A stretch of 64,000 nt of DNA from an uncultured Verrucomicrobiae bacterium (GTDB taxonomy: Bacteria > Verrucomicrobiota > Verrucomicrobiia > Limisphaerales > JAFGQR01). The translations under genes were made by a program, and so were the position numbers. Below are positions 18,655-31,949 of the stretch, one piece after another. How positions within the stretch are numbered: the first letter of the stretch is position 1; each line of letters opens with the position of its first letter. The DNA lies in NCBI GenBank assembly GCA_963788655.1, contig CAWBHS010000110.1, forward strand, positions 96,001-160,000. The letters are read 5' to 3'. The notes under the pieces are model-generated. The model was not told the origin of the DNA and ran no database searches. It was given only the letters and a program-made list of their open reading frames with translations.

Positions 18655-19305
18655 ATGGCGGCAATTTTTCCAAAGTGGACAAACCGGGTGCCCGCAATGG
18701 TGATGGCGGGCGCTTTGTTGATGAGCGGCGGGGTGACGGCAGGCGTGTGGTACTATTTTACGCCCAAGTACACCCGGGTCGGTTATCAACCCATCCAGCC
18801 GGTTGCCTTTTCCCACGCGATTCATGTGGACCAGGTGGGCCTGGACTGCCGGTATTGCCACACGGACGTGGAACGGTCCTGGTATTCGAATGTGCCCTCG
18901 ACGTCCACCTGCATGAATTGCCACAAGCACATTCTCAAGGACGATCCCCGGCTGGCGCCCGTGCGCGAAAGTTATGATATGGAGCAGCCCATTCGCTGGG
19001 TGCAGATTCACAAGTTGCCGGACTACGTGTATTTCAACCACTCGGTCCACGTGAACCGTGGCATTAGTTGCGTGATGTGTCATGGCCCGATTAACAAGAT
19101 GGACGTGGTCTATCACGCCAAGCCATTCAGCATGACGTTTTGCCTGGACTGCCATCGCAATCCGGGTCCCAACCTCCGGCCCAAGGATCAAATTACCAAC
19201 CTGGATTGGGATCCGCACCAACACCTGCCGAAGGAGTGGTTTGCCCGCGCCAAGAAGGAGTGGAAAATCAACGCTTCGCAAAACTGTTCCGCCTGCCATC
19301 GATGA
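18655..19305 (+). CDS. actA: Alternative complex III pentaheme cytochrome c subunit
   Basis: N-terminal TM, PIQPVAFSHAIH, five CxxCH motifs (CRYCH, CMNCH, CVMCH, CLDCH, CSACH), LPDYVYFNHSVH. Confidence 0.93.
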   Translation: MAAIFPKWTNRVPAMVMAGALLMSGGVTAGVWYYFTPKYTRVGYQPIQPVAFSHAIHVDQVGLDCRYCHTDVERSWYSNVPSTSTCMNCHKHILKDDPRLAPVRESYDMEQPIRWVQIHKLPDYVYFNHSVHVNRGISCVMCHGPINKMDVVYHAKPFSMTFCLDCHRNPGPNLRPKDQITNLDWDPHQHLPKEWFARAKKEWKINASQNCSACHR

Positions 19306-22300
19306 AACGGATTCCACCCCCTTGCCCTGAACCGGAAAGCGGCCCGACCTACTGGCGCAGCCTGGATCATTTGGCGGACACGCCCGAGTTTCGTCAGTGG
19401 GTCGAACGGGAGTTTCCCGATGGCGCCAGTGAATTTCGTGACCCGGTTTCACGCCGGCATTTCCTCAAGATCATGTCCGCCTCGTTCATGCTGGCGGGAC
19501 TGGGACTAGCTGGCACCGGTTGCCGGCGTCCGGAGGAACACATTCTCCCGTTTACCCGGCAGCCGGAGGGCTACATCCATGGGATGCCGGAGTTTTATGC
19601 CACGGCGATGCCGACTCGTCGTAGTGCGGTGCCGCTGGTCGTCAAAGCGCACGAATCGCGTCCGGTGAAAATCGAAGGCAACGCCGAACATCCCGATAGC
19701 AATGGCGGGACAGATACGTTTTCGCAGGCCTCGTTGCTGAGCCTTTACGATCCGGATCGCGCGATGCGGTTCACGTACCAGGGCACAACGACCGAACGGG
19801 CGCGAGTGATGGATTTCCTGGATTCATCGGCCCGGAAATTCACAACCAACGGCGGAGAAGGACTGTGCTTCCTGCTGGAGCAAAGCAGCTCACCTTCGCG
19901 GGAACGATTGCTGGCGGCGATCAGCAAGAAATTTCCCCAAGCCCAATGGTTCGTTTATGAACCGGTGAACTTGGACGTCGGGAACAGCGTGGCCAGCGCA
20001 TTGGCCGGTCAACCGGTTAGATCGCGCCACCATCTGGACCGGGCCAAGGTGATTCTTTCGCTCGACTGCGATTTTATTGGGGCCGAGCAGGACGCGCATC
20101 GGTTCATTCGCGACTTCGCGCGTGGACGGAAGCTTACCGGTCCCGGCGATACGATGAACCGCCTTTATGCGGTGGAAGGCTTGCTGACTCAGACCGGCAT
20201 GAACGCCGATCATCGTCTGCGCGTGCCGACAAGTACCGTCGTGGCCATCGCCGCTGCCATCGCCGCTGAATTGGTGACGGGGAATGCGGCAATCAAGGCG
20301 TTGGCGCAAAAGCATCCTTTGCCCGCCGAAGTGGACCGGGCGTGGGTGACCGAATGCGCGGCGGACCTCAAGGCGAACCGCGGCTCGTCATTGATCCTGG
20401 CCGGGTATCGCCAACCGCCGGCCGTTCACGCGCTGGCGCACTGGCTGAACCAGATGTTGGGCAACAGCGGCAAGACCGTCGAGTTCGTGCCGGATTTGCC
20501 GACGCCGGGGAGCATCGAGCAATTGGCCCAATTGCTCGACAACGGCAAGGTGGACACGCTGGTGATCCTGGGCGGCAATCCCGTCTATAACGCACCCGCC
20601 AATCTCAATTGGGCTTCGGCGCAAGCCAAAGCCAAAAGCGCCGTGGTGCGACTGGGTTATTTCGAGGACGAAACCTTTGCGGCCAGCACCTGGCATTTGC
20701 CGATGGCGCACTATCTCGAGTCCTGGGGCGATGCCCGCACCGGCGATGGTACGCTCGTGCCGGTGCAACCGTTGATCTTCCCGCTGTTCGGCGGCTTGAC
20801 TGAACTGGAAGTCCTGGCCCGGATCGGCGGACTGCAAAGTTACCGGCCCTATCAAACGGTTCGCGACACGTTCAAAGAACTGGAAGGCGCCGACAATTTT
20901 GAAGAGAATTGGAAGAAGTTTTTGCACGACGGTTTCCTGGCCAACTCGGCGGTCAAACCAGTTTCGGTGCAATTTGCGCCGGCGCGGTTGGCAACATTGA
21001 TCAATAACGCCACGGCCACGCCGGCTCCGGACAAGGATCGGGTGGAAGTGGTATTCCAACGCGATTACAAGGTGGATGACGGCCGGTGGAGCAACAACGG
21101 CTGGCTCCAGGAAATGCCTGATCCAGTGACCAAAATGACCTGGGACAGCGCCGTGTTGATGAGCCGCAAAACCGCCGAGGCTTTTGGGGTGCAGGCCGCC
21201 CCCACCTCGGGACCGCACCACGGCCGGGCGGAGATGGTGGAAATCGAATTGGACGGGCGCAAGGTCAAGGGGCCGGTTTGGATTCAGCCCGGCATGGCGG
21301 ACTTCGTGGTGGGATTGGCGCTCGGTTACGGCCGGAAGAAGACCGAGCGAGGCGGCACGGGGCGCGTCGGTCATAACGTGGGCGCTTACAATGCCTACGC
21401 CTTGCGCACCAGCGGGGCGATGCACTTCACCGTGGGCGCCAAGTTGCGTCAAGCGGTGGAGACCTATCAGGTAGCCTGCACGCAGGAACACGGCGCGATG
21501 GAAGGACGACCCATCATTCGTGAAGCCAACGCGCAGCAGTACGCCGAAACGCCGCAGTTCGCGAAGAACATGGATCCGATGGCCCACACGCCCTTCATTC
21601 CCAAGGACGCCGAGGGCCGGCCCATCAAGATTTACGAGCACCCGTATCATGCCTACGATGACCGCAAGTCGCAGGACGGGGTTGATCTTTCCGGAAAACT
21701 GTTCCACAGCGACGTGCATCAATGGGGGATGTCCATTGACCTGAATTCCTGCGTCGGATGTACGGCGTGCGTGATGGCCTGCCAGAGCGAAAACAACATC
21801 CCAATCGTGGGCAAGGACCAGGTGTGGCGCAGCCGCGAGATGCACTGGATCCGGATCGACCGCTACTACAGCGGCGACCGGGAAAAGTCGCACGCGGAGA
21901 TGATCGACGATCCGCAAGTCGTCGTGCAACCGATGATGTGCCAGCACTGCGAAGCCGCGCCGTGCGAAAACGTCTGTCCGGTCAACGCCACCGTCCACGA
22001 TGAAGAAGGCTTGAACGTGATGGTCTACAACCGTTGCGTCGGCACGCGTTATTGCTCGAACAACTGTCCCTACAAGGTCCGCCGCTTCAATTTCTTCGAT
22101 TACAACAGCCGCACCGTTCGAGCAGTTGCGGGGACCGTTTTATCCGACGCCGTTGACCAGCGTTACGGACGGCGAATGGGACCTTGAAACGTTGGTGGAA
22201 GAATCCGCAGCGCGGCACGCCAACCGGAAGACGAATGGGAGTTGCATCAAATGGTGAAGAATCCGGATGTCACGGTGCGCATGCGCGGCGTGATGGAGAA

Positions 22301-22709
22301 ATGCACGTTCTGCGTCCAGCGCATCGAGCACGCGAAGATCGCGCAGAAGGTCAAGGCCGGGCGAGTCCGGCGATGTGCAGGTGCCCGAAGGGACGATTCA
22401 AGACGGCCTGCCAGCAGGCCTGTCCCGCGGACGCGATTGTGTTCGGCAACTTGCTGGACCCGAACAGCCAGGTGTCACTGCTCAAGGCAACGGGACCGGG
22501 ATTACTCCGTGCTGGCGTATCTTGCTCACGCGGCCGCGCCTGACTTATCTGGCGCGGGTGCGCAATCCGAATCCGCGCGATGCCGGATTACCATGAGATT
22601 CCGTTGAACATCGCAGCTTACGTCGAGGAATGAGCCCGAGAATCCATTCGCGCCGCATGCCGGGGAGGCCGGCGCTGAGGCGCACTCGCCAGAGAAGGGA
22701 GAGCACTAA
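19302..22709 (+). CDS. actB: ACIII subunit B (molybdopterin-oxidoreductase-like plus Fe-S domain); several indels after about 22110
   Basis: YWRSL, TAT motif SRRHFLK followed by lipobox-like [50 protein letters not shown]. Fragments [22 protein letters not shown] and [16 protein letters not shown] lie in shifted frames. Confidence 0.9.
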
Positions 22710-24151
22710 TGGCTGACACTCTCATCAAGTCCGTTCCCAGTATCCACGCCGACACCGGCGGAATTGGAGCGCATGCCGCTGGTGGCGAACCAGCGCAGCG
22801 TCGGCTGGATTTCCGACCACATTGCCGAGCGTGGCGGAAGGCAAGACGCCGTTGTGGTGGTGGATCGCGTTCGTTCCGAGCGTGCTGTTGACGGTGGTGC
22901 TGCGTTAGCATGATGACGTATCTCGATCTCCACCGGCGTGGGCGTCTGGGGCTTGAGACACCCGGTGATGTGGGGCTGGGACATCATCAATTTCGTCTGG
23001 TGGATCGGCATCGGCCACGCCGGCACGCTGATTTCCGCGATTCTCTTTCTGCTGCGCCAGCGCTGGCGCACGGCCGTCAACCGCGCGGCGGAGGCCATGA
23101 CGATTTTTGCCGTGATGTGCGCCGGACATTTTCCCGCTGATCCACGTCGGGCGCGTCTGGTTTGCCTGGTGGTTGTTCCCGATCCCAACGTCCAACGGCA
23201 TCTGGCCGCAGTTCCGGTCGCCGCTGATGTGGGACGTGTTCGCGGTCTCGACCTACTTCACCGTTTCGCTGCTGTTCTGGTACATGGGCTTGATTCCCGA
23301 CCTGGCCATGATGCGCGATCGGGCCAAGACCAAAGTCCGGCAGATTCTTCTACGGTATTGTTCGCGCTGGGCTGGACCGGCTCGAACCGGCACTGGAGCA
23401 ATTACGAAAAGGCCTACTGATTCTGGCCGGCTTGGCCACGCCGCTGGTGTTGTCGGTGCACTCCATCGTGTCCTTGGACTTTTGCGGTGTCGCAGTTGCC
23501 GGGCTGGCACACGACGATCTTCCCGCCTTACTTCGTGGCGGGCGCGATTTACTCCGGGTTCGGCATGGTGCTGACGCTGCTGGTGCCGCTGCGCAAGATC
23601 TGCAAGCTGGAGGACATCATCACGATGCGGCACATGGAAATGATGTGCAAAGTGACGCTGGCGACGGGTTCCATCGTCGGCTACGCCTATGCGATGGAGT
23701 ATTTCATCGCCTGGTACAGCGGCAATCCTTACGAGCGATTGGACCTTCTGGCAACCGCGTGTTCGGGACCTACTGGTACGGCGGTACTGGACGATGCTGT
23801 CGTTCAACGTGCTGTTGCCGCAGTTGTTCTGGTTCAAGAAGATCCGGACCAGAACCTGGTGGTGGTGTTCATCATTTCGATCTTTGTGAACATCGGCATG
23901 TGGTTCGAGCGGTTCGTCATCATCGTCGACGTCGCTGTACCAGGATTTCCTGCCGGCCAACTGGGGGTATTTCCAGCCGACGTGGGTGGACATGTTGCAC
24001 GTATCTGGGCACGATTCGGTTTGTTCTTCACGCTGTTCCTGCTGTTCATGCGGTTTCTGCCGATGATCGCCATTTCCGAAGTCAAAGGCGTGACGCCGCA
24101 GGCGGACCCGCACCATCCGCTGGGCGGCGCCGAAACGGAGGGCGTCACTGA
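22709..24151 (+). CDS. actC: ACIII subunit C (NrfD/PsrC family); multiple indels
   Basis: Fragments [91 protein letters not shown]. Confidence 0.9.
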
Positions 24152-24690
24152 TGAGCAGAGTCCACTCAAACCTACGGAATGATCGCTGAATTCGGTACGC
24201 GCGGCGGAAATGTTGCACGCGGCGCGAAAAGGTGCGCGACGCGGGCTACCGCGCTGGGACGTGTTCACGCCGTTCCCGGTGCATGGCATGGACGAGGCGA
24301 TGGGCCTGGGAATTCGAAGGTCGGCTGGTTCACCTTCATCGGCGGGGTCACGGGTTACACACGGGCATGCTGATGATCTGGTGGATGAACGCTTACGACT
24401 ATCCGATTGGTGGTCGGGCGGCAAACCGATGTTCAGCCCGTTCCCGGCGTTTCCCGCCGTCCTACGAACTGACCATTCTGCTGGCGCGTTCGGTGCGTTG
24501 ATCGGCATGCTGATCCTGAACCGGCTGCCGCGACTGCATCATCCGCTGTTCAAGTGCCCGGTTCAAGAAGGTGACCCACGACGGATTTTTTATCGCGATT
24601 GAGGCGGACGATCCGAAGTTCTCCGCTGAAGCAACCCGCAGCTTGCTGGAACGCGCCGGCAGCCAGCACATCGAAGAGGTGAAGGACTAA
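24151..24690 (+). CDS. actD: ACIII subunit D (DUF3341); multiple indels
   Basis: Fragments YGMIAEF, WDVFTPFPVHGMDEAMG, GGKPMFS, YELTILL, NRLPRLHHPLF, DGFFIAIEADDPKF. Confidence 0.85.
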
Positions 24691-25346
24691 TGCGCTACAT
24701 CTTTCTCACCTTTATTCTCGCGGTGGTGGCGGTGGTGGTGATTGCCGGGCGTCGCGGCGACTTCTCCGGCGACCGCCGATTGAAGTTTTCCCCGACATGG
24801 ACCGACAACCGAAACTGCGGCCGCAAACCGACAACAAGTTTTTCCCCGACGGAATGAGTTCGCAGCCTGCGGTGCCCGGCACCGTGGCGCGCGGTTCGGC
24901 TTATCAAGACGACGCCGTACAACACCGGAAAGATCCCCGGCACGACTAATTGGGTGGAAATCCTGCCGGTGCCGGTGACTGCCGAATTGATGGCCCGCGG
25001 GCGGGAGCGCTACAACATATATTGCTCGCCGTGCCACGGTCCCACCGGCGCCGGCAAAGGCATTACCACGAATCCGATTTACGGCATGATTGGCGTGGCC
25101 AATTTCCACGATCCGCGCCTGGTCCGCATGGCGGACGGCGAAATCTTCAACACGATCACCTACGGCAGTCCGGCGCAACTGATGCTGGCTTACGGCGGCA
25201 TGATTCCGATTGCGGACCGCTGGGCCATCATCGCCTATGTGCGGGCTTTGCAGCGTTCGCAGTTGGCGACGTTGGACGACGTGCCGGCGGACATTCGCCC
25301 GGAATTGACCAAACCGTTGGCGCCGGGCACGGGAGGGACGCAATAA
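24690..25346 (+). CDS. actE: ACIII subunit E monoheme cytochrome c; indels in the 5' part
   Basis: Hydrophobic N-terminus, FPDMDRQPKLRPQ, RGRERYNIYCSPCHG, DGEIFNTIT, DRWAIIAYVRALQ. Confidence 0.87.
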
Positions 25347-25348
25347 TT

Positions 25349-26593
25349 ATGAACGGCTCGACCTTTGTTGCTACCGTCACGCCGGAACAGCGAAAAGCGC
25401 TGGAGGCCAAAGTCTCGCGGCTGGCGCTGGTCTTCCTGGTGGGAGGCGGTTTGCTGGGGCTCATCGGCCTGTTCACGAATCCCAAACAGTTTGCGTTTTC
25501 GTATCTGCTGGCGTTCATGTTTTTCCTGAGCATTTGTTTGGGAGCGCTGTTCCTGGTGATCATTCATCATCTCTTCGACGCCAACTGGTCGGTGCCAATC
25601 CGGCGAGTTTCGGAACACCTGGCGTTTCTGGTGCCGGTGATGGCGGCGTTGTTCATTCCGATTGCCCTGTTGGGGCCCTCGCAGATTTATTCGTGGATGC
25701 AGAGTGTGCTGGCCGGCCATGCCAACCTTGAGCATGCCTTGCGCGCCAAGCAACCACTCTTCAATCTGCCGTGGTTTTATCTGATTGCCGTGATCCTGTT
25801 CGCGGCGTGGACCTGGCTCTCGTACAACCTGCGCAAGTATTCCATTCAACAAGACCAATCCGGCGCGGCGCGCTGCACCTACAAGATGCGGATGCACTCG
25901 GCCTACGGAATCTACGTGTTCGCGTTCTCGATCACACTGGCGGCGGTCTTTTGGATGATGGCTCTCGAGTACCAATGGTATTCGACCATGTATGGCGTCT
26001 ATTATTTCGCAGGCAGCGTCTGGACGACGTTGGCTACGTTGTACGTGCTGGGGGTGGCGTTCGTGCGGACGGGACCGTTGAGCGCGGTGATGCACCGCCG
26101 GCATTTTCATGACCTGGCCGTGCTGTTTTTTGCGTTCACGGTGTTCTACGCCTACATCGCCTTTTCGCAGTATTTTCTGATGTGGAACGGCGCCATTCCC
26201 GAGGAAACATTTTTCTTCGTGAAACGCGAAACCGGCTCGTGGTGGAGCATGGGTTTGTTGCTGATCTTCGGTCATTTCTTTTTACCGTTTCTGGCCATGC
26301 TGCGGATCGACACCAAGCTGTGGCTGCCGTTGATGCTGCCGTTGTGCGCCTGGGCCTGGATCATGCAATTCTGCGACCTCGCGTTCAACATCATGCCAGT
26401 GTTGCACCCGGAAGGGTTCCAACCGCATTATCTGGACTTTGCGTGCCTGGCCTTCATCGGCGGGGTGCTGGCAATGGTCTTTATCCGGTACTTCAAACAG
26501 CATGCGCCGTATCCGGTGAAGGATCCGCGGCTGGAAGAATCCATCGGGCTGCGTCATGGCGGACCGTTGCCGCCGGCCACGGCACCCGAGTAA
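25349..26593 (+). CDS. actF: ACIII subunit F
   Basis: Multi-TM protein with AFSYLLAFMF, WMMALEYQWYSTMYG, HFHDLA, YIAFSQYFLMWNGAIPEE. Confidence 0.9.
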   Translation: MNGSTFVATVTPEQRKALEAKVSRLALVFLVGGGLLGLIGLFTNPKQFAFSYLLAFMFFLSICLGALFLVIIHHLFDANWSVPIRRVSEHLAFLVPVMAALFIPIALLGPSQIYSWMQSVLAGHANLEHALRAKQPLFNLPWFYLIAVILFAAWTWLSYNLRKYSIQQDQSGAARCTYKMRMHSAYGIYVFAFSITLAAVFWMMALEYQWYSTMYGVYYFAGSVWTTLATLYVLGVAFVRTGPLSAVMHRRHFHDLAVLFFAFTVFYAYIAFSQYFLMWNGAIPEETFFFVKRETGSWWSMGLLLIFGHFFLPFLAMLRIDTKLWLPLMLPLCAWAWIMQFCDLAFNIMPVLHPEGFQPHYLDFACLAFIGGVLAMVFIRYFKQHAPYPVKDPRLEESIGLRHGGPLPPATAPE

Positions 26594-26600
26594 AGTGCGA

Positions 26601-26975
26601 ATGAACGTCAAGCTGACATCTCGAAGCAGTGTGGCGGCCCTGGCGGTGAGCCTACTGGGCTGCCTGCTTCTGGTCTATGCCCTGGTGAAAACCGTGCAAC
26701 ACTACATGCAACCGCCGCCGTTGAACGCCACCCGCGTCGAGGAACGCCAGAAAGCGCTGGCGGAATTGCGCGCGCGGGAACAGGAGCAAACGCAGAATTA
26801 CGGTTGGGTCGATCAAGCACACGGCATTGTGCGCCTGCCGATCACCAACGCCATGGAACTGACCATTCGGGAATATCGCAATCCGTCGGTGGCCCGCACC
26901 AATTTGCTCACCCGCCTCGAGCAAGCCACGAAGCCCCTGCCGAAACCTGAACCGCCGCCGAACCCATTCGAATAG
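26601..26975 (+). CDS. Small single-TM protein, ActG-like
   Basis: One TM and YGWVDQAHGIVRLPITNAM motif. Its position after actF matches accessory ACIII subunits. Confidence 0.6.
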   Translation: MNVKLTSRSSVAALAVSLLGCLLLVYALVKTVQHYMQPPPLNATRVEERQKALAELRAREQEQTQNYGWVDQAHGIVRLPITNAMELTIREYRNPSVARTNLLTRLEQATKPLPKPEPPPNPFE

Positions 26976-26981
26976 CCGGCG

Positions 26982-28472
26982 ATGACCGCGTCCGTTACTC
27001 CCGCTCCCCAAACTTCCGAGACCGCGGCCGCGACGCCGATGGTCGAGCCGCGTGATTCGGTAGCGATCATCGATGCGTCGTGCCGATGGCCGTTAATGCT
27101 GTTGTTCATTGGCGGCCTTGCCTGGCTACTGGGCGGGATGTTCCTGGCCATCATTGCCTCGGTCAAACTGCACGCCCCCGGCTTCCTCGCTCACGCCGCC
27201 TGGCTCACGGTGGGGCGGTTGCGTCCGGCGGCCATGAACGCGCTGATTTACGGTTTTGCGACGCCCGTCAGCCTGGGCGTCCTGATGTGGATGCTGGCCC
27301 GCTTGGGCGGGCTGCGCTTGTTGTATCCCGGTCCCGTTTTTGTGGCCGGCCTGATGTGGAATTTCGGCGTTGTCAGTGGCGTGTTGGGCCTCCTGGCGGT
27401 TGGTTCCACTGGTTTTGAATGGCTGGAAATGCCACCGTACACGCCGCCGTTGTTGTTGATCGCATTTCTCGTCCTGGCCATTAGCGCGCTGATGAATTTC
27501 TCCTTTCGCCGGGAGAAGACCGGGTATGTCTCGCAATGGTATTTGCTGGCGGGCTTGTTCTGGTTTGTCTGGATCTATTCGGCCTCGAGTTACCTGTTGC
27601 TCTACCATCCCGTGCGGGGCGTGCTCCAAGCGGTGGTGGGCGCATGGTTCACCAGTAACCTGCTCGGCCTATGGCTCACGTCCGTGGGACTGGCGATCGT
27701 TTTCTACTTCATCCCCAAACTCCTCCAGCGTCCTTTGCAGAATTACTGGCTGGCGGTCTTTGGCTTTTGGACCCTGGCGGTCTTTGGCAGTTGGACGGGG
27801 CTGGCCCAGTTCGCGGGTGGACCGCTGCCGCGCTGGATGGTCAGCGTCAGCGGCGTGGCCAATGGGTTGATGATTGTGCCGGTGCTCGCCGTGGCGCTGA
27901 ACTGGCATTGGACGCTGGTCGGGAAATATCATCAGTTCAAAACCGACTTCGTGTTGCGGTTCGTCTTGGCCGGCGCGGTTTCGTATCTGGCGGCCAATCT
28001 GTTGGCGAGTGTGGTGGGATTCCAACCATTGGCCGCGCTGACGCAACTGACGCTGGTGCCGGTCGCGCGCGTGCAACTGGCCCTGCATGGCTTTGTGGGA
28101 CTCACGCTCTTGGGCGCCTTGTATTACATCCTGCCGCGATTGCTGCAAGTGAACTGGCCATCGATGAAACTGGTGCGGTTCCACTGGCTGGCCTCGGTCA
28201 TTGGTGTGGCGCTCATGTTCGTGGCGTTACTGGTCGGCGGCCTGATTCAAGGCGGCCGATTGCTGAATCCGGACACCGATTTCGTCAGCGTGCTCAAATC
28301 GACCATTCCGTTTCTCGGCAATGCCGCCTTGGGACTGTGCGTCTTGCTGACGGGCCAGGTGGCCTTGGGGTGGAACCTCGGGTTGATGTTGTGGCAATAT
28401 TGCCAACAGAGCAGTCCGGTAACTGAACTGTTGGAGGCGGTGGACGCCGCGGAGGCGGGAGGGCGACCATGA
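26982..28472 (+). CDS. cbb3-type oxidase subunit I (CcoN) homologue lacking the metal-ligand histidines
   Basis: CcoN scaffold motifs GRLRP, STGFEWLEMP, YVSQWY, FYFIPK, GFW and YYILPRL are present, but the His ligand positions are substituted. ORF is intact. Confidence 0.85.
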   Translation: MTASVTPAPQTSETAAATPMVEPRDSVAIIDASCRWPLMLLFIGGLAWLLGGMFLAIIASVKLHAPGFLAHAAWLTVGRLRPAAMNALIYGFATPVSLGVLMWMLARLGGLRLLYPGPVFVAGLMWNFGVVSGVLGLLAVGSTGFEWLEMPPYTPPLLLIAFLVLAISALMNFSFRREKTGYVSQWYLLAGLFWFVWIYSASSYLLLYHPVRGVLQAVVGAWFTSNLLGLWLTSVGLAIVFYFIPKLLQRPLQNYWLAVFGFWTLAVFGSWTGLAQFAGGPLPRWMVSVSGVANGLMIVPVLAVALNWHWTLVGKYHQFKTDFVLRFVLAGAVSYLAANLLASVVGFQPLAALTQLTLVPVARVQLALHGFVGLTLLGALYYILPRLLQVNWPSMKLVRFHWLASVIGVALMFVALLVGGLIQGGRLLNPDTDFVSVLKSTIPFLGNAALGLCVLLTGQVALGWNLGLMLWQYCQQSSPVTELLEAVDAAEAGGRP

Positions 28473-29173
28473 ACTACGGTCCCTTGCTTTTCTTTGGCGT
28501 TTTCCTGACACTGACCAGTTCGTTCTGGGGTCTGGTCGTGGCGCCCCAATTACAGCTTGGCCGGCAGATGCCCGTCGCCCAGGAAAACGTGGGCCAGTTC
28601 TATCCGGCGCCCCGCTCTGGACTGGCCCAGGAAGGCGCGCAGGTGTACCGCACGTTGGGGTGCGTGGAGTGCCACACGGAACAGGTGCGCGGCTTGGGCA
28701 GTGATCTCGCCCGCGTTTGGGGCGAACGTATTTCCGTGGCTCAGGATTATCTGTACGACGACCCGGTTCAACTCGGCCAGCAACGGCTTGGGCCGGATTT
28801 GACGAACATTGGCGTCCGGCAAACCAACGCCGTCTGGCATTTCCTGCACCTCTTCGATCCCAAACTTACCGTGGTAGGTTCACCGATGCCGCGGTACCCG
28901 TTCTTGTTCGACCGGGAACCGGAAGGAACCCAGTTCCCCTCCCCTTGGGCGCTGACCCCGGAGTTGGAACAGAACGGCCGCAAATTCCACCTGGTTCCCA
29001 AACGGGAGGCCCGGGCCCTGGTGGCGTACCTGTTGAGTTTGCGGTCAGAAGTCTCCTTGTTTGAGGCGCCCGGGCCCAAGCCGGAAACCAACGCGCCCCC
29101 GGCGGGCTCAACTTCCACCAATCAAACGTCCACTCCCGCGGCTGTGAAAACCGGCTCCGCACCCGCGCCATGA
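28469..29173 (+). CDS. ccoO: cbb3-type oxidase subunit II (CcoO)-like monoheme cytochrome c
   Basis: N-terminal TM, GAQVYRTLGCVECHTEQVR, GQQRLGPDLTNIG, WHFLHLFDP, SPMPRY. Confidence 0.88.
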   Translation: MNYGPLLFFGVFLTLTSSFWGLVVAPQLQLGRQMPVAQENVGQFYPAPRSGLAQEGAQVYRTLGCVECHTEQVRGLGSDLARVWGERISVAQDYLYDDPVQLGQQRLGPDLTNIGVRQTNAVWHFLHLFDPKLTVVGSPMPRYPFLFDREPEGTQFPSPWALTPELEQNGRKFHLVPKREARALVAYLLSLRSEVSLFEAPGPKPETNAPPAGSTSTNQTSTPAAVKTGSAPAP

Positions 29174-29937
29174 AGAAGCGAAAGGCCAAGTCCAGCAAAG
29201 CGCGTCCGGCACCCGAACGTCCGCAAGTAGCTCCGAAGGCGCCCAGCCCCGAGCTGGCTCGGGTGCCATCCGTCAAGCCGGCCCGCAAAACGCCTTCCTC
29301 TCGACCGTCTGCGGTGGCCAAGCCCTTGGACGAATCGCCGGAGCCCACCGTGCGTCAAGGTTCGCCGATGCCGGTCATGATGATTGCCCTGTTGGGCTTG
29401 CTCCTGTACTTGGGCGAAGTCCACGTGATCGATACGGCTGGGGACTTCGATCCCCGGGTTTATTATCCATACCAGTCGGTCAAGCAACTCGAAGACCTCC
29501 AACCCAAATCCGCCGCCGACGCCATGTATGTCCAGGGGCGCAAGGTCTATAATTCCATCTGCATCCAATGCCACCAAGCCAACGGCCAGGGTAATCCAGC
29601 GATGTTTATTCCACCGCTGGTGGGTTCGGATTGGGTGCTCGAACCCGAGCCCGGACGCATCATCCGCATCGTATTCAAAGGACTCCAGGGCCCCATTACC
29701 GTGAAAGGCGAGAACTTCGGCCAGGGCGCAATGTTCGCGGTCGGCGATCAGTTGCCGGGAAATGAGGAGGAGAGAATTCAAGAAGTCGCCGCCGTCTTGA
29801 CGTACATTCGCAGCACCTGGGGCAACAGCGCGCCGCCCGTAACAATCGAACGGGTACAAACGGCTCACGAACAATTCAAGAACCGCACTGCGCCCTGGAC
29901 CGCCGACGAGTTGCTGAAGCTCGAACCGAGCGAATAG
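29170..29937 (+). CDS. Membrane-anchored monoheme cytochrome c
   Basis: Lys/Pro-rich N-tail, TM, GRKVYNSICIQCHQANGQG, PPLVGSDWV, AAVLTYIRSTWGN. Confidence 0.9.
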   Translation: MKKRKAKSSKARPAPERPQVAPKAPSPELARVPSVKPARKTPSSRPSAVAKPLDESPEPTVRQGSPMPVMMIALLGLLLYLGEVHVIDTAGDFDPRVYYPYQSVKQLEDLQPKSAADAMYVQGRKVYNSICIQCHQANGQGNPAMFIPPLVGSDWVLEPEPGRIIRIVFKGLQGPITVKGENFGQGAMFAVGDQLPGNEEERIQEVAAVLTYIRSTWGNSAPPVTIERVQTAHEQFKNRTAPWTADELLKLEPSE

Positions 29938-30197: not shown

Positions 30198-31850
30198 TTA
30201 CGCGGCTTGGTTCAGGATCGCCTTGAGATCCTCAGCCGCCGTCTTGATTGGCATCAGGTTGAATTTCTCGACCAGCACCCCAAGCACATTGGGTGACACA
30301 AATGCCGGCAACGTCGGACCAAGCCGGATGTTCTTGATGCCCAGGAACAGCAAGGTCAACAGAATCGCCACGGCTTTTTGTTCGTACCAGGAGAGCACGA
30401 GCGACAACGGCAGGTCATTGACGCCGCAGTTAAAGGCTTTGGAAAGGGCCACCGCGATCTGGATGGCGGAATAGGCATCGTTACACTGGCCGATGTCCAG
30501 CAACCGCGGCAGGCCGCCAATGGTGCCAAAGTCGAGTTTGTTGAAACGGAATTTACCGCAAGCGAGGGTGAGGATCATACAATCCTGAGGAACGGATTCC
30601 GCGAACTCGGTGTAATAATCCCGTCCTGTTCGCGCGCCGTCACAGCCGCCGACCAGGAAGAAATGCTTGATGTCCCCGCCCTTGACGGCCGCGACAACTT
30701 TGTCGGCGACGTTCATCACGGCATTATGGCCGAACCCGGTCAGGATGGTTTTATCCGGACCATCCTCCGCAAATCCCGGTGCGGCCAAAGCCGCCTCGAT
30801 GACCGGACTGAAATCGCCATCAGCAATGTGCCGGACATCGGGCCAGGCTACTAAACCGGAAGTGAAAATTCGGTCTTGGTATGCCGGCTGCGGTTCCTGG
30901 ATGCAGTTGGTGGTCATCAGAATGGCGCCGGGGAAGCTTTTGAATTCATCCTTTTGATCCTGCCAGGCGCCGCCGTAATTGCCGACCAGATGCGGGTAGG
31001 CCTTGAGCCGCGGATAGCCGTGCGCCGGCAGCATCTCGCCATGCGTATAGATATTGATGCTCTTGCCTTCCGTTTGTTTAAGCAGTTCTTCGAGATCCTT
31101 GAGATCGTGACCCGAAACCAAAATCGCCTTGCCTTGGAGGGGTTCAATGCGCACGGGCGTTGGCACGGGATGGCCGTAGGTCGTGGTGTGCGCCTGATCG
31201 AGCAATTCCATCACCTGCAAATTGATATCTCCGCACTTGAGGCACAGCCCCAGCAGGCCATCCACGGTGGGATTTGGTTCCGCCAATGCACTCAACGCTT
31301 CATGGAAGAAGGCGTAGATCCCGTCTGCCTCCCGGCCCAGGATCAGCGCGTGGTCGGCATAAGCGGCGGCGCCTTTGACGCCATACAACAACAAGTCCTG
31401 CAATCCGGCCACGTCGGGTCCGAATCGGTCGCGGCGGGACAGCGACGAAACCATCTCCCCTTGTTTGACCAAGCCGTCGGCGGAATCGGCCGGCACCCAG
31501 GTTGAAGGGCCATTGAATGTTTCGGTTGCCGATCCGGCCTTGGCCGCCGCGGCGACATACAGGGTGCGGGCCTCGTCCCGCAGAGCGGCGGCCTTGCGAA
31601 TGATCGGCTCGATGCGTTGCGCGTCAAAATTTACGTTCGTCACGGTGGTAAACAGCGCCTCGATTACAAACCGGTCGAGCGTGGGATCTTTCGCCCCGAA
31701 CTGCCGCGCCCGGTGCGCGAATTGGGAAAGGCCTTTGGTGGCATGCACCAGCAGATCCTGGAGCATGGCGGTTTGTTCATCCTTGCCGCACGTGGCAAAA
31801 TCAGTGCAGCCGGTCCCTTTTGAAGTCTGTTCACATTGATAGCAAAACAT
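30198..31850 (-). CDS. hcp: Hybrid cluster protein (hydroxylamine/NO reductase)
   Basis: MFCYQCEQT...GCTDFATCGK, SGHDL, YTHGEMLPAH, MTTNC, GGCDG, LACGK, GQCND, SWYEQKAV. Confidence 0.97.
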   Translation of the reverse strand: MFCYQCEQTSKGTGCTDFATCGKDEQTAMLQDLLVHATKGLSQFAHRARQFGAKDPTLDRFVIEALFTTVTNVNFDAQRIEPIIRKAAALRDEARTLYVAAAAKAGSATETFNGPSTWVPADSADGLVKQGEMVSSLSRRDRFGPDVAGLQDLLLYGVKGAAAYADHALILGREADGIYAFFHEALSALAEPNPTVDGLLGLCLKCGDINLQVMELLDQAHTTTYGHPVPTPVRIEPLQGKAILVSGHDLKDLEELLKQTEGKSINIYTHGEMLPAHGYPRLKAYPHLVGNYGGAWQDQKDEFKSFPGAILMTTNCIQEPQPAYQDRIFTSGLVAWPDVRHIADGDFSPVIEAALAAPGFAEDGPDKTILTGFGHNAVMNVADKVVAAVKGGDIKHFFLVGGCDGARTGRDYYTEFAESVPQDCMILTLACGKFRFNKLDFGTIGGLPRLLDIGQCNDAYSAIQIAVALSKAFNCGVNDLPLSLVLSWYEQKAVAILLTLLFLGIKNIRLGPTLPAFVSPNVLGVLVEKFNLMPIKTAAEDLKAILNQAA

Positions 31851-31949
31851 AGTCGTCTTCCGTCGTTTCAATTGATGGTTTGGGCAAGCGCCACCGGGAC
31901 ACTCGCGTTCTTACGGGACGGACTATGCAACAGCCTCGGAATTGGGCCT

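Follow-up and report, generated by a model that had tools for sequence, protein, structure and literature searches.

A CcoN homologue without heme and copper ligands in an alternative complex III operon of a verrucomicrobial genome

What is subunit I of a cbb3 oxidase (CcoN) kept for once every residue that holds its hemes and its copper has been replaced? The question is raised by a gene in a 64,000-nucleotide (nt) stretch of DNA (the window; positions 96,001 to 160,000 of contig CAWBHS010000110.1, assembly GCA_963788655.1) from an uncultured Verrucomicrobiae bacterium, the genome of which comprises 8.96 Mb in 115 contigs and is 86% complete. The gene stands between those for alternative complex III (ACIII) and those for two c-type cytochromes, and it encodes a CcoN homologue that lacks all six histidine ligands as well as the cross-linked tyrosine. 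We consider it fairly probable, at roughly 60%, that the protein is a catalytically dead, cofactor-free descendant of CcoN which is retained as a membrane scaffold for the CcoO subunit and a cytochrome c beside ACIII.

A CcoN homologue with its ligands replaced

The protein matches the COX1 family PF00115 over residues 39-428 with an E value of 7.3e-40 and 137.6 bits (cut-off 34.8). On the ccoN equivalog model TIGR00780 it scores 138.9 bits, below the curated cut-off of 583.15; canonical verrucomicrobial CcoN proteins reach 606-680 bits on this model. A phmmer search against all PDB chains returned cbb3 CcoN chains only (9g6b_A, 1.1e-28; 3mk7_A, 1.7e-27). The alignment of residues 45-476 of the query with residues 21-461 of 3mk7_A, the CcoN of Pseudomonas stutzeri, was used to map the seven reference residues H60, H207, Y251, H257, H258, H345 and H347.

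Both histidines of the low-spin heme b are gone (H60 is replaced by A84, where RLRPLHTN reads RLRPAAMN at nt 27216, and H347 by Q365), as is the ligand of the high-spin heme b3 (H345 to R363, IGHVH reading VARVQ at nt 28062). The three CuB histidines are replaced by S225 (H207, WYGHN reading WFTSN at nt 27645), A275 (H257) and Q276 (H258), and the cross-linked Y251 by G269 (YIWAGPHH reading GSWTGLAQ at nt 27786). NorB proteins of the cNOR and qNOR types are recognised by six histidines and a glutamate for FeB; the histidine positions that these share with CcoN are likewise all replaced. The ExxE loop is present, with E146 and E149 of FEWLE matching E122 and E125 of the P. stutzeri protein (KEYAE). 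A first-pass annotation of the window had described these replacements and the retained loop by eye, and the alignment bears out every motif and coordinate that it gave. Its further description of an intact, full-length ORF (open reading frame) also holds, as does the 12-helix scaffold; the words 'no indels' are slightly too strong, since the alignment contains a few short gaps in loops.

The start of the gene at 26982 is supported by a conserved motif, IDASCRxP, that precedes helix 1. Five of its residues (D31, S33, C34, R35 and P37) are at least 90% conserved, and C34 is a cysteine in 128 of 143 ligand-free relatives (defined below), in 35 of 66 ligand-bearing relatives from the same operon and in none of 16 canonical CcoN. 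In the database, the same protein (P0002, 458 amino acids) is called from a start 38 residues later, past the motif, and lacks residues 1-38 (26982-27095).

An AlphaFold2 model computed from a 118-sequence alignment has a mean pLDDT (predicted local distance difference test) of 92.8 and a pTM (predicted template modelling score) of 0.92. When this model was compared with the PDB by Foldseek, seven CcoN chains ranked first, with template modelling scores of 0.84-0.85 for the query (TMq) and 0.89-0.90 for the target (TMt) and a root-mean-square deviation (rmsd) of 2.1-2.5 Å; the values for 3mk7_A are 0.84, 0.89 and 2.1 Å. Chains of NorB and of subunit I of ba3, aa3 and bo3 oxidases are found below CcoN. 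CcoN, NorB, ba3 and aa3 chains are all matched at a probability of 1.00, and the NorB chain 3o0r_B is a weaker fold match (5.3e-10). In this predicted model the scaffold of 12 transmembrane helices is that of CcoN and of heme-copper subunit I.

Recurrent ligand loss under purifying selection

Relatives were collected from proteins and from genomes. A protein search over 5.8 billion proteins gave 423 matches among 8000 scored candidates, the best 120 of which were taken. A genome scan with one genome per species gave 597 pattern matches and 530 confirmed relatives; the best 80 loci of these 530 were used, nearly all of which are labelled Verrucomicrobiota. Together with the aligned proteins, these 80 loci and a further 32 genes, taken from a sample of 201 genomes of the phylum, make up a CcoN alignment of 232 rows. 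We call a row ligand-free if it keeps at most one of the seven reference residues, i.e. the six histidine ligands and the cross-link tyrosine, and compare three groups: 143 ligand-free rows, 66 ligand-bearing rows from operons of the same type, and 16 canonical or divergent CcoN. Seven of the contigs (L012, L028, L032, L048, L054, L081 and L085) are titled as metagenome-assembled genomes of Akkermansia muciniphila or Bifidobacterium sp.; these titles clash with the verrucomicrobial content of the operons, so that the organism labels of these contigs are not trustworthy.

Among 121 aligned proteins, 103 keep no histidine at the six ligand sites, 14 keep one, and two, three and six histidines are kept by one, one and two proteins, respectively. 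Over all 232 rows, none of the seven reference residues is kept in 121, one in 22, two in 5, three in 1, five in 1 and all seven in 82. The 143 ligand-free rows are full-length ORFs that diverge to about 40% mutual identity while about 80 positions are still at least 90% conserved, and the lineage of the window protein alone spans more than 100 sequence clusters. The same replacements recur in independent assemblies at 48-69% identity, and the substitutes at the seven sites differ between lineages. Counted by species, the seven residues are complete in 58 of the best 80 loci, reduced to one or none in 18 and partly kept in 4. The majority of species thus have a normal ACIII-cbb3 operon, among them an isolate, Opitutaceae bacterium EW11 (L075), and the dead CcoN occurs in a minority; the loci verified as ligand-free all come from metagenome-assembled genomes. 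Neither the prevalence of orthologues with a full set of ligands in this operon nor the recurrence of ligand loss was visible from the window.

Some relatives are partly depleted. Only the two heme b ligands are left in L109 (HNSQRYH, in the order of the reference residues), only Y251 and H257 are missing from L082 (HHSSHHH), and in others (L031, L058, L078, P0069 and P0081) one or two CuB histidines remain. These partial forms look like intermediates of the same process of loss.

The loss extends beyond the ligands. Twelve further positions are at least 90% conserved in the ligand-bearing group and at least 80% in canonical CcoN and are lost in the ligand-free group: W221, T233, Y241, Y255, S258, S294, P323, G342, H355, W403, R448 and G452. 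Among them are Y241, S258, T233 and Y255, which we take to be residues of the cbb3 proton channels, and R448, presumably the arginine that contacts the heme propionates; W403, too, is assumed to have its role beside the hemes. The counterpart of R448 is an invariant arginine in all 16 canonical CcoN. The positions that are newly conserved in the ligand-free group are all apolar or small (P82, F92, G109, M150, L205, V211, L252, A258, G370 and G451), and no polar or charged residue is newly conserved specifically in this group (143 rows compared with 66 and 16). Scaffold residues conserved in all three groups include W48, R107, E149, W186, P245, F262, W263, P283, W285, H401 and Q423, and a further set, which includes D31, S33, K62, H64, T143, W147, R212, Q216, W222, R386 and W392, is common to the ligand-free proteins and their ligand-bearing operon relatives only. 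In a census of histidines over the 143 ligand-free rows no column apart from H64 and H401 exceeds 52% His. On this alignment the ligand-free group has no conserved set of shifted ligands, and the window protein appears unable to hold hemes or copper by any conserved ligand set.

Selection was estimated as omega, the ratio of nonsynonymous (dN) to synonymous (dS) substitution rates, by the Nei-Gojobori method on pairs above 68% identity. These were 4 pairs of ligand-free genes and, out of 600 ligand-bearing pairs, a set of 18 made up of the first 6 with more than 90% identity, a random draw of 8 in the range 74-82%, and 4 more. Pairwise omega is 0.085-0.137 for the ligand-free and 0.018-0.166 for the ligand-bearing pairs. 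In the unsaturated ligand-free pair L048/L052, CcoN has a dN of 0.021, a dS of 0.17 and an omega of 0.126, a value close to those of CcoO (0.078) and ActB (0.096) in the same two loci, where ActF has 0.055. Values above 1 obtained for ActB, orf547 or the cytochrome c were disregarded because the best tblastn pieces of the two loci covered different parts of the gene. Over the whole tree, the GY+F3X4 codon model puts omega at 0.079 for the ligand-free set (19 genes, 438 codons) and at 0.051 for the ligand-bearing set (21 genes, 457 codons). The ligand-free proteins thus combine, as pseudoenzymes do, the loss of cofactor residues with purifying selection over many lineages (omega 0.08-0.14). The first-pass annotation had proposed a selected cofactor-free pseudo-oxidase rather than decay, and in this it is upheld by the extent of the loss (143 of 232) and by the low omega. 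It had named close orthologues with intact histidines, together with a dN/dS near 1, as evidence that would speak for decay; orthologues with intact ligands do exist, and dN/dS is far below 1.

How often the ligands were lost depends on the gene from which the history is read. A FastTree tree of the 232 CcoN rows places the 143 ligand-free and 5 partial rows in one clade with a support of 85. In the tree of ActB from 73 loci, the ligand-free loci are interleaved with ligand-bearing ones by taxonomy, which requires 9 changes; branches with good support make at least 6 of these unavoidable. With ActB from 40 loci, approximately unbiased (AU) tests reject that the 19 ligand-free loci form one clade (delta lnL 1505, p-AU 1.6e-49), and they also reject this for the six ligand-free loci of family f5 (p 0.0035). 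They do not reject monophyly of the 11 loci in the window's own Pedosphaerales/Limisphaerales-type group (p 0.54). A CcoN tree under LG+C20 places the ligand-free pair of f4 (L110, L112) beside ligand-bearing f4 genes with a support of 99, and the CcoN data tolerate a union of the ligand-free with the ligand-bearing f5 genes (p 0.36).

A single ancient loss is rejected by the ActB test, by the LG+C20 tree and by the tolerance of the CcoN data for the ActB-like grouping. For these three reasons we read the ligand-free clade of the FastTree tree as long-branch attraction. The trees point to at least three to four independent losses, one in the window's group, one in f4 and at least two in f5, and there may be further ones given L114 and the partial forms L109 and L082. 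The direction is read as loss and not as gain because the canonical outgroups have all ligands.

The operon and its partner subunits

In the window the genes follow one another on the plus strand from 18655 to 29937 in the order actABCDEF, a small ORF, CcoN, CcoO and cytochrome c (Table 1). This is the layout of an ACIII-cbb3 superoperon, with actABCDEF directly upstream on the same strand and ccoO and a cytochrome c gene downstream. The annotated ORF 24950-26593 is an upstream over-extension of actF, which has no Pfam match. The first-pass annotation had called for a check of synteny with the act genes, and the arrangement is found widely: ACIII genes stand upstream of CcoN in 74 of the best 80 loci, actF is found upstream of it in most of the 80, and 5 of the other 6 loci have less than 1 kb of upstream sequence. 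L020 is the sole locus among the 80 that has a full upstream flank and lacks act genes. CcoO follows CcoN in 77 of the 80, and the remaining three stop at a contig edge. The same ACIII-linked layout recurs in nine additional ligand-free loci, L110-L118, which come from the phylum sample.

Table 1. Genes of the ACIII-cbb3 operon in the window, with the evidence for each assignment
Feature	Positions	Strand	Evidence
actA, pentaheme cytochrome c of ACIII	18655..19305	+	68% identity to L007 ActA; five CxxCH; multiheme cytochrome Pfam matches
actB, molybdopterin-oxidoreductase-like + 4Fe-4S	19140..22706	+	Fer4, QrcC/QrcB-like and TAT-signal matches; tblastn to L007 ActB
actC, NrfD-like quinol-binding membrane subunit	22709..24149	+	365/476 identical to L007 ActC after frame correction
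actD	24164..24687	+	PF11821 ActD; 117/174 identical (frameshift-aware alignment to L007)
actE, monoheme cytochrome c subunit	24687..25343	+	55% identity to L007 ActE; 148/217 after frame correction
actF, second NrfD-like membrane subunit, intact	25352..26593	+	67% identity over 413 aa to L007 ActF, one frame
Small single-helix membrane ORF	26601..26975	+	124 aa (139 aa from upstream ATG); 45% identity to L007 counterpart
Ligand-free CcoN homologue	26982..28472	+	496 aa, single open frame
CcoO-like monoheme cytochrome c	28469..29173	+	PF02433 FixO 1.8e-26; CVECH at residues 65-69; Met140-Pro141
Membrane-anchored CcoP-like monoheme cytochrome c	29170..29937	+	PF00034/PF13442; weak TIGR00782 ccoP match; one CIQCH

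The heme sites of the partner proteins are intact. In all 14 aligned ligand-free operons C65, C68, H69, M140 and P141 of CcoO are invariant, and one CxxCH motif is present in CcoO of 25 of the 26 ligand-free loci with a CcoO match; in the remaining locus, L021, CcoO is spread over two frames. The downstream cytochrome c has one CxxCH in each of the 24 ligand-free loci that reach that far.

The CcoN-CcoO pair was also modelled as a complex. The window protein with its own CcoO gives an ipSAE interface score of 0.86 (median of three runs), compared with 0.00 for the best of 3 controls, and passes a mark that is attained by 116 of 157 solved complexes and by 2 of 215 mismatched pairs. The runs share at least 96% of their contacts, and the pLDDT of the partner is at least 78. 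The modelled interface is enriched in positions with at least 90% conservation among the ligand-free proteins (25 of 85 vs 58 of 365; odds ratio 2.2, Fisher p 0.008); mean conservation is 0.71 vs 0.62, and nine family-specific residues (K62, H64, T76, T143, W194, W197, R212, Q216 and W222) fall within it. The confident CcoN fold and the modelled interface, which passes its controls, agree with the first-pass view that scaffold and CcoO contact have been kept.

The act genes contain a stretch rich in apparent indels. Between 22113 and 24911, 30 skips of one or two bases are needed against the proteins of the relative L007, of which 9 fall in the 3' end of actB, 14 in actC, 5 in actD and 2 in actE. 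Those of actB are single-base indels confined to its last ~600 nt, from 22113 onward to the end of the frameshift-aware alignment at 22706. Once skips are allowed, identities to L007 are 74% for the 3' end of actB, 77% for actC, 67% for actD and 68% for actE. The genes on both sides need no frame correction, and the CcoN ORF lies outside the stretch. An alternative genetic code, considered for the in-frame TGA codons of actB, actC (at 22911, 22914 and 23418) and actE, was rejected, since similarity resumes in other frames and indels explain the codons. Elsewhere in the source genome (G000), a second ActD on contig C88 (128709-134967), 4.5 kb from a PF00115 oxidase gene, is split in two frames with one TGA, and so is a PF00115 gene on contig C11 (110683-112015); frameshifts are therefore not limited to the window. 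In the act stretch the assembly was probably left unpolished, a likelier reading than decay of the genes.

The small ORF between actF and ccoN is present in most loci, in ligand-free and ligand-bearing operons alike. It has no match in Pfam or NCBIfam, the Atlas clusters nearest to it consist of hypothetical verrucomicrobial proteins, and it could represent an ACIII or oxidase-module subunit that has so far gone unrecognised. Seven of the 14 aligned ligand-free operons (L007, 11422-12240; L011, 11509-12330; L012; L042; L048; L051; L070) carry a CcoO-like protein with an insertion of roughly 70-90 residues after the CxxCH...QVRQ segment, which is absent from the window copy; the CcoO ORFs of ligand-bearing operons mostly have 207-270 amino acids, suggesting that they have no such insertion. 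Behind the operon, 9 of 41 ligand-bearing loci (e.g. L044, 12919-15648) have a gene for a CcoI-like P-type ATPase, vs 0 of 12 ligand-free loci with at least 5 kb downstream, a link that is only suggestive and confounded by relatedness. In the window, a gene for a hybrid-cluster protein or hydroxylamine reductase (30198-31871, minus strand; NF003658, 807 bits) lies downstream of the operon and is convergent with it; this gene was not found downstream in L007, L009, L011, L044 and L075.

The source genome contains three other full-length PF00115 genes (445-554 bits) in addition to the split one on contig C11. Neither a further TIGR00780 match nor the cbb3 biogenesis genes ccoG or ccoS were found in this genome, which is 86% complete. 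Canonical CcoN above the TIGR00780 cut-off occurs in 36 of the 201 genomes of the phylum sample, and it accompanies 7 of 9 verified ligand-free copies and 5 of 6 verified ligand-bearing ACIII-linked copies. As there is no difference in co-occurrence, redundancy does not tell ligand-free from ligand-bearing lineages.

Possible roles and relation to known systems

A retained scaffold would account for these observations as follows. The ancestor would have been the CcoN of an ACIII-linked cbb3 oxidase, which lost the binding of heme b, heme b3 and CuB and with it any reduction of O2 or NO. Its 12-helix fold and its docking surface for CcoO would have been kept, so that the protein could hold the heme-bearing CcoO and the monoheme cytochrome c next to ACIII. 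Electrons from menaquinol would leave ACIII through c-type hemes, whose normal acceptor, heme b, is gone, and may pass to another acceptor such as the other heme-copper oxidases of the genome or a periplasmic reductase. Among the functional roles listed in the first-pass annotation, that of a scaffold or adaptor fits best, whereas that of a transporter or sensor finds no support, as no new polar residues are conserved.

Several points weigh against this reading. The scaffold role and the contact with ACIII are read from gene order. The synonymous trees are saturated (lengths of 57 for the ligand-free and 30 for the ligand-bearing genes), and the ratio of CcoN to ActB p-distances is 1.29 over 171 ligand-free pairs vs 0.77 over 210 ligand-bearing pairs. 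Ligand-free CcoN thus evolves faster relative to ActB; by these estimates constraint is relaxed about 1.5- to 1.7-fold yet still strong. The groups compared in the AU tests were named after the trees had been seen. E146, the counterpart of E122 in P. stutzeri, is kept in 115 of the 143 ligand-free rows only. As to CcoO, solved CcoN-CcoO complexes exist and the model may owe its pass to likeness to, or memory of, cbb3 structures, and the enrichment of conserved residues is modest and refers to a predicted interface. Finally, real indels in the act genes would mean that this copy has a dead ACIII as its partner.

The explanations that compete with a scaffold differ in what they take the gene to be. 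That the sequence is an artefact of sequencing or assembly is already disfavoured and can practically be dismissed. The indel-rich stretch lies only 2 kb upstream and frameshifted genes occur on other contigs, but the gene is a single open frame that aligns end to end with its relatives, the same replacements are found in independent assemblies, and seven separate codon substitutions are not explicable by indels. A functionless relic on the way to being lost, likewise already disfavoured, would fit the faster evolution compared with ligand-bearing relatives, the partial ligand patterns of L109 and L082 and the broken look of the adjoining act genes in the assembly. It is very unlikely in view of an omega of about 0.08-0.14, not near 1, of 143 full-length ORFs that have kept their conserved positions over deep divergence, and of the more than 100 clusters in the window's lineage. 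Similarly unlikely is a redox enzyme that still binds heme through non-canonical or shifted ligands. The first-pass annotation had suggested that histidines in LALHG or RFHW might fill the sites, and H369 (LALHG) does lie one helical turn past the former H347 site, with H64, H309 and H401 (RFHW) as additional histidines. H369, however, is a histidine in just 50 of the 143 ligand-free relatives, and the other three are as well or better conserved in ligand-bearing relatives. H401, present in 138 of 143 ligand-free, 66 of 66 ligand-bearing and 14 of 16 canonical proteins, is equally kept where the ligands are intact and is thus no replacement ligand. R448 and W403 are lost, and the census described above yields no other histidine column, so that the proposed rescue fails.

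Two further explanations agree that the protein is retained and assign it another task; we regard both as unlikely. In one, a new function in its own right has arisen, such as binding of another cofactor or of quinone, conduction of protons or ions, or sensing, and holding CcoO is not the point. Arginine, glutamine or lysine often occupies the former heme b3 ligand site (R in 71, Q in 25 and K in 18 of the 143 rows), the family-specific invariants H64, R212 and Q216 and the N-terminal DASCR have no known role, and purifying selection is strong. Against this, the ten newly conserved positions are all P, F, G, M, L, V or A and none is polar or charged, the replacement residues vary by lineage, polar residues of the K-channel type are lost, and H64, R212 and Q216, which sit in the modelled CcoO interface, are just as conserved where the ligands are present. 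In the other, the protein serves mainly the assembly of ACIII or the stability of a supercomplex, with CcoO and the cytochrome c being secondary. This agrees with its conserved place directly after actF in 74 of 80 loci, with the repeated loss of catalysis while the gene was kept, and with the precedent of ActB, which we take to be already a cofactor-less, enzyme-derived subunit of ACIII. It does not need the enrichment of conserved residues at the CcoO interface, and the second ACIII of the genome adjoins another heme-copper oxidase gene on C88 without such a CcoN.

The scaffold reading can be carried further, to a more tentative proposal that we hold to be doubtful at present. Selection on the ACIII-linked 'cbb3' of Verrucomicrobiota might act mainly on its part in the structure and electron wiring of an ACIII supercomplex and not on oxygen reduction; in the ligand-free lineages, dead CcoN, CcoO and cytochrome c would form an obligatory exit wire to a different terminal enzyme. 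Selection of this kind would explain recurrent catalytic death under purifying selection. With the same reserve, this might then be the first known case of a heme-copper oxidase subunit I that lives on without cofactors. A ligand-free CcoN was not described in any text found by a full-text literature search, which did not extend to Ducluzeau et al. 2008 and Refojo et al. 2010; either could mention one. The six histidine ligands are treated as universal in the heme-copper superfamily, to which a widespread, conserved subunit I with none of them would be an exception. There is also a practical consequence. The ligand-free proteins carry the annotation 'cbb3-type cytochrome c oxidase subunit I', and genome studies take such genes as a sign of high-affinity, microaerobic respiration (PMC13608581, PMC6688271). 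For Verrucomicrobiota lineages with the ligand-free form the inference of a high-affinity oxidase is probably wrong.

The co-location of ACIII and cbb3 genes has been reported before for Methylacidiphilum and Verrucomicrobia (PMC6688271). The nearest precedent for a changed active site is gNOR, described by Murali et al. 2024 (PMC11214002) as the first heme-copper oxidase family that replaces one active-site histidine. In gNOR the hemes and the metal site remain, whereas in the window CcoN all six histidines are gone without a conserved alternative set. With canonical cbb3 CcoN (3MK7, also 9G6B, 8SMR and 6XKW) the window protein has in common the 12-helix fold, 22-24% identity, an adjacent gene for a heme-c CcoO and the motifs GRLRP, ExxE, FW, LPxW and QG. 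In contrast to these it is devoid of the six ligands and the cross-link tyrosine, of Y241, S258, T233 and Y255 and of Arg448, and its gene is separate from that of CcoO, while canonical verrucomicrobial CcoNO genes are fused (open frames of 716-843 amino acids). The ligand-bearing ACIII-linked CcoN, e.g. of EW11 (L075), are closer, with the same operon, 38-44% identity and shared family-specific residues; they differ in keeping HHYHHHH and in evolving about 1.7 times more slowly relative to ActB.

A parallel is offered by the same operon. ActB, like QrcB, has a molybdopterin-type domain that we assume to be without molybdopterin, and would thus be another case in which an enzyme lost its cofactor while its fold stayed on as a structural part of a respiratory complex. 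The two cases presumably differ in that the ActB/QrcB domain has another fold and goes back to a single ancient event, while the loss in CcoN is recurrent and recent enough that ligand-bearing orthologues and intermediates survive. CcoN therefore provides a natural experiment on the non-catalytic roles of a respiratory subunit and on the way in which ACIII hands on its electrons.

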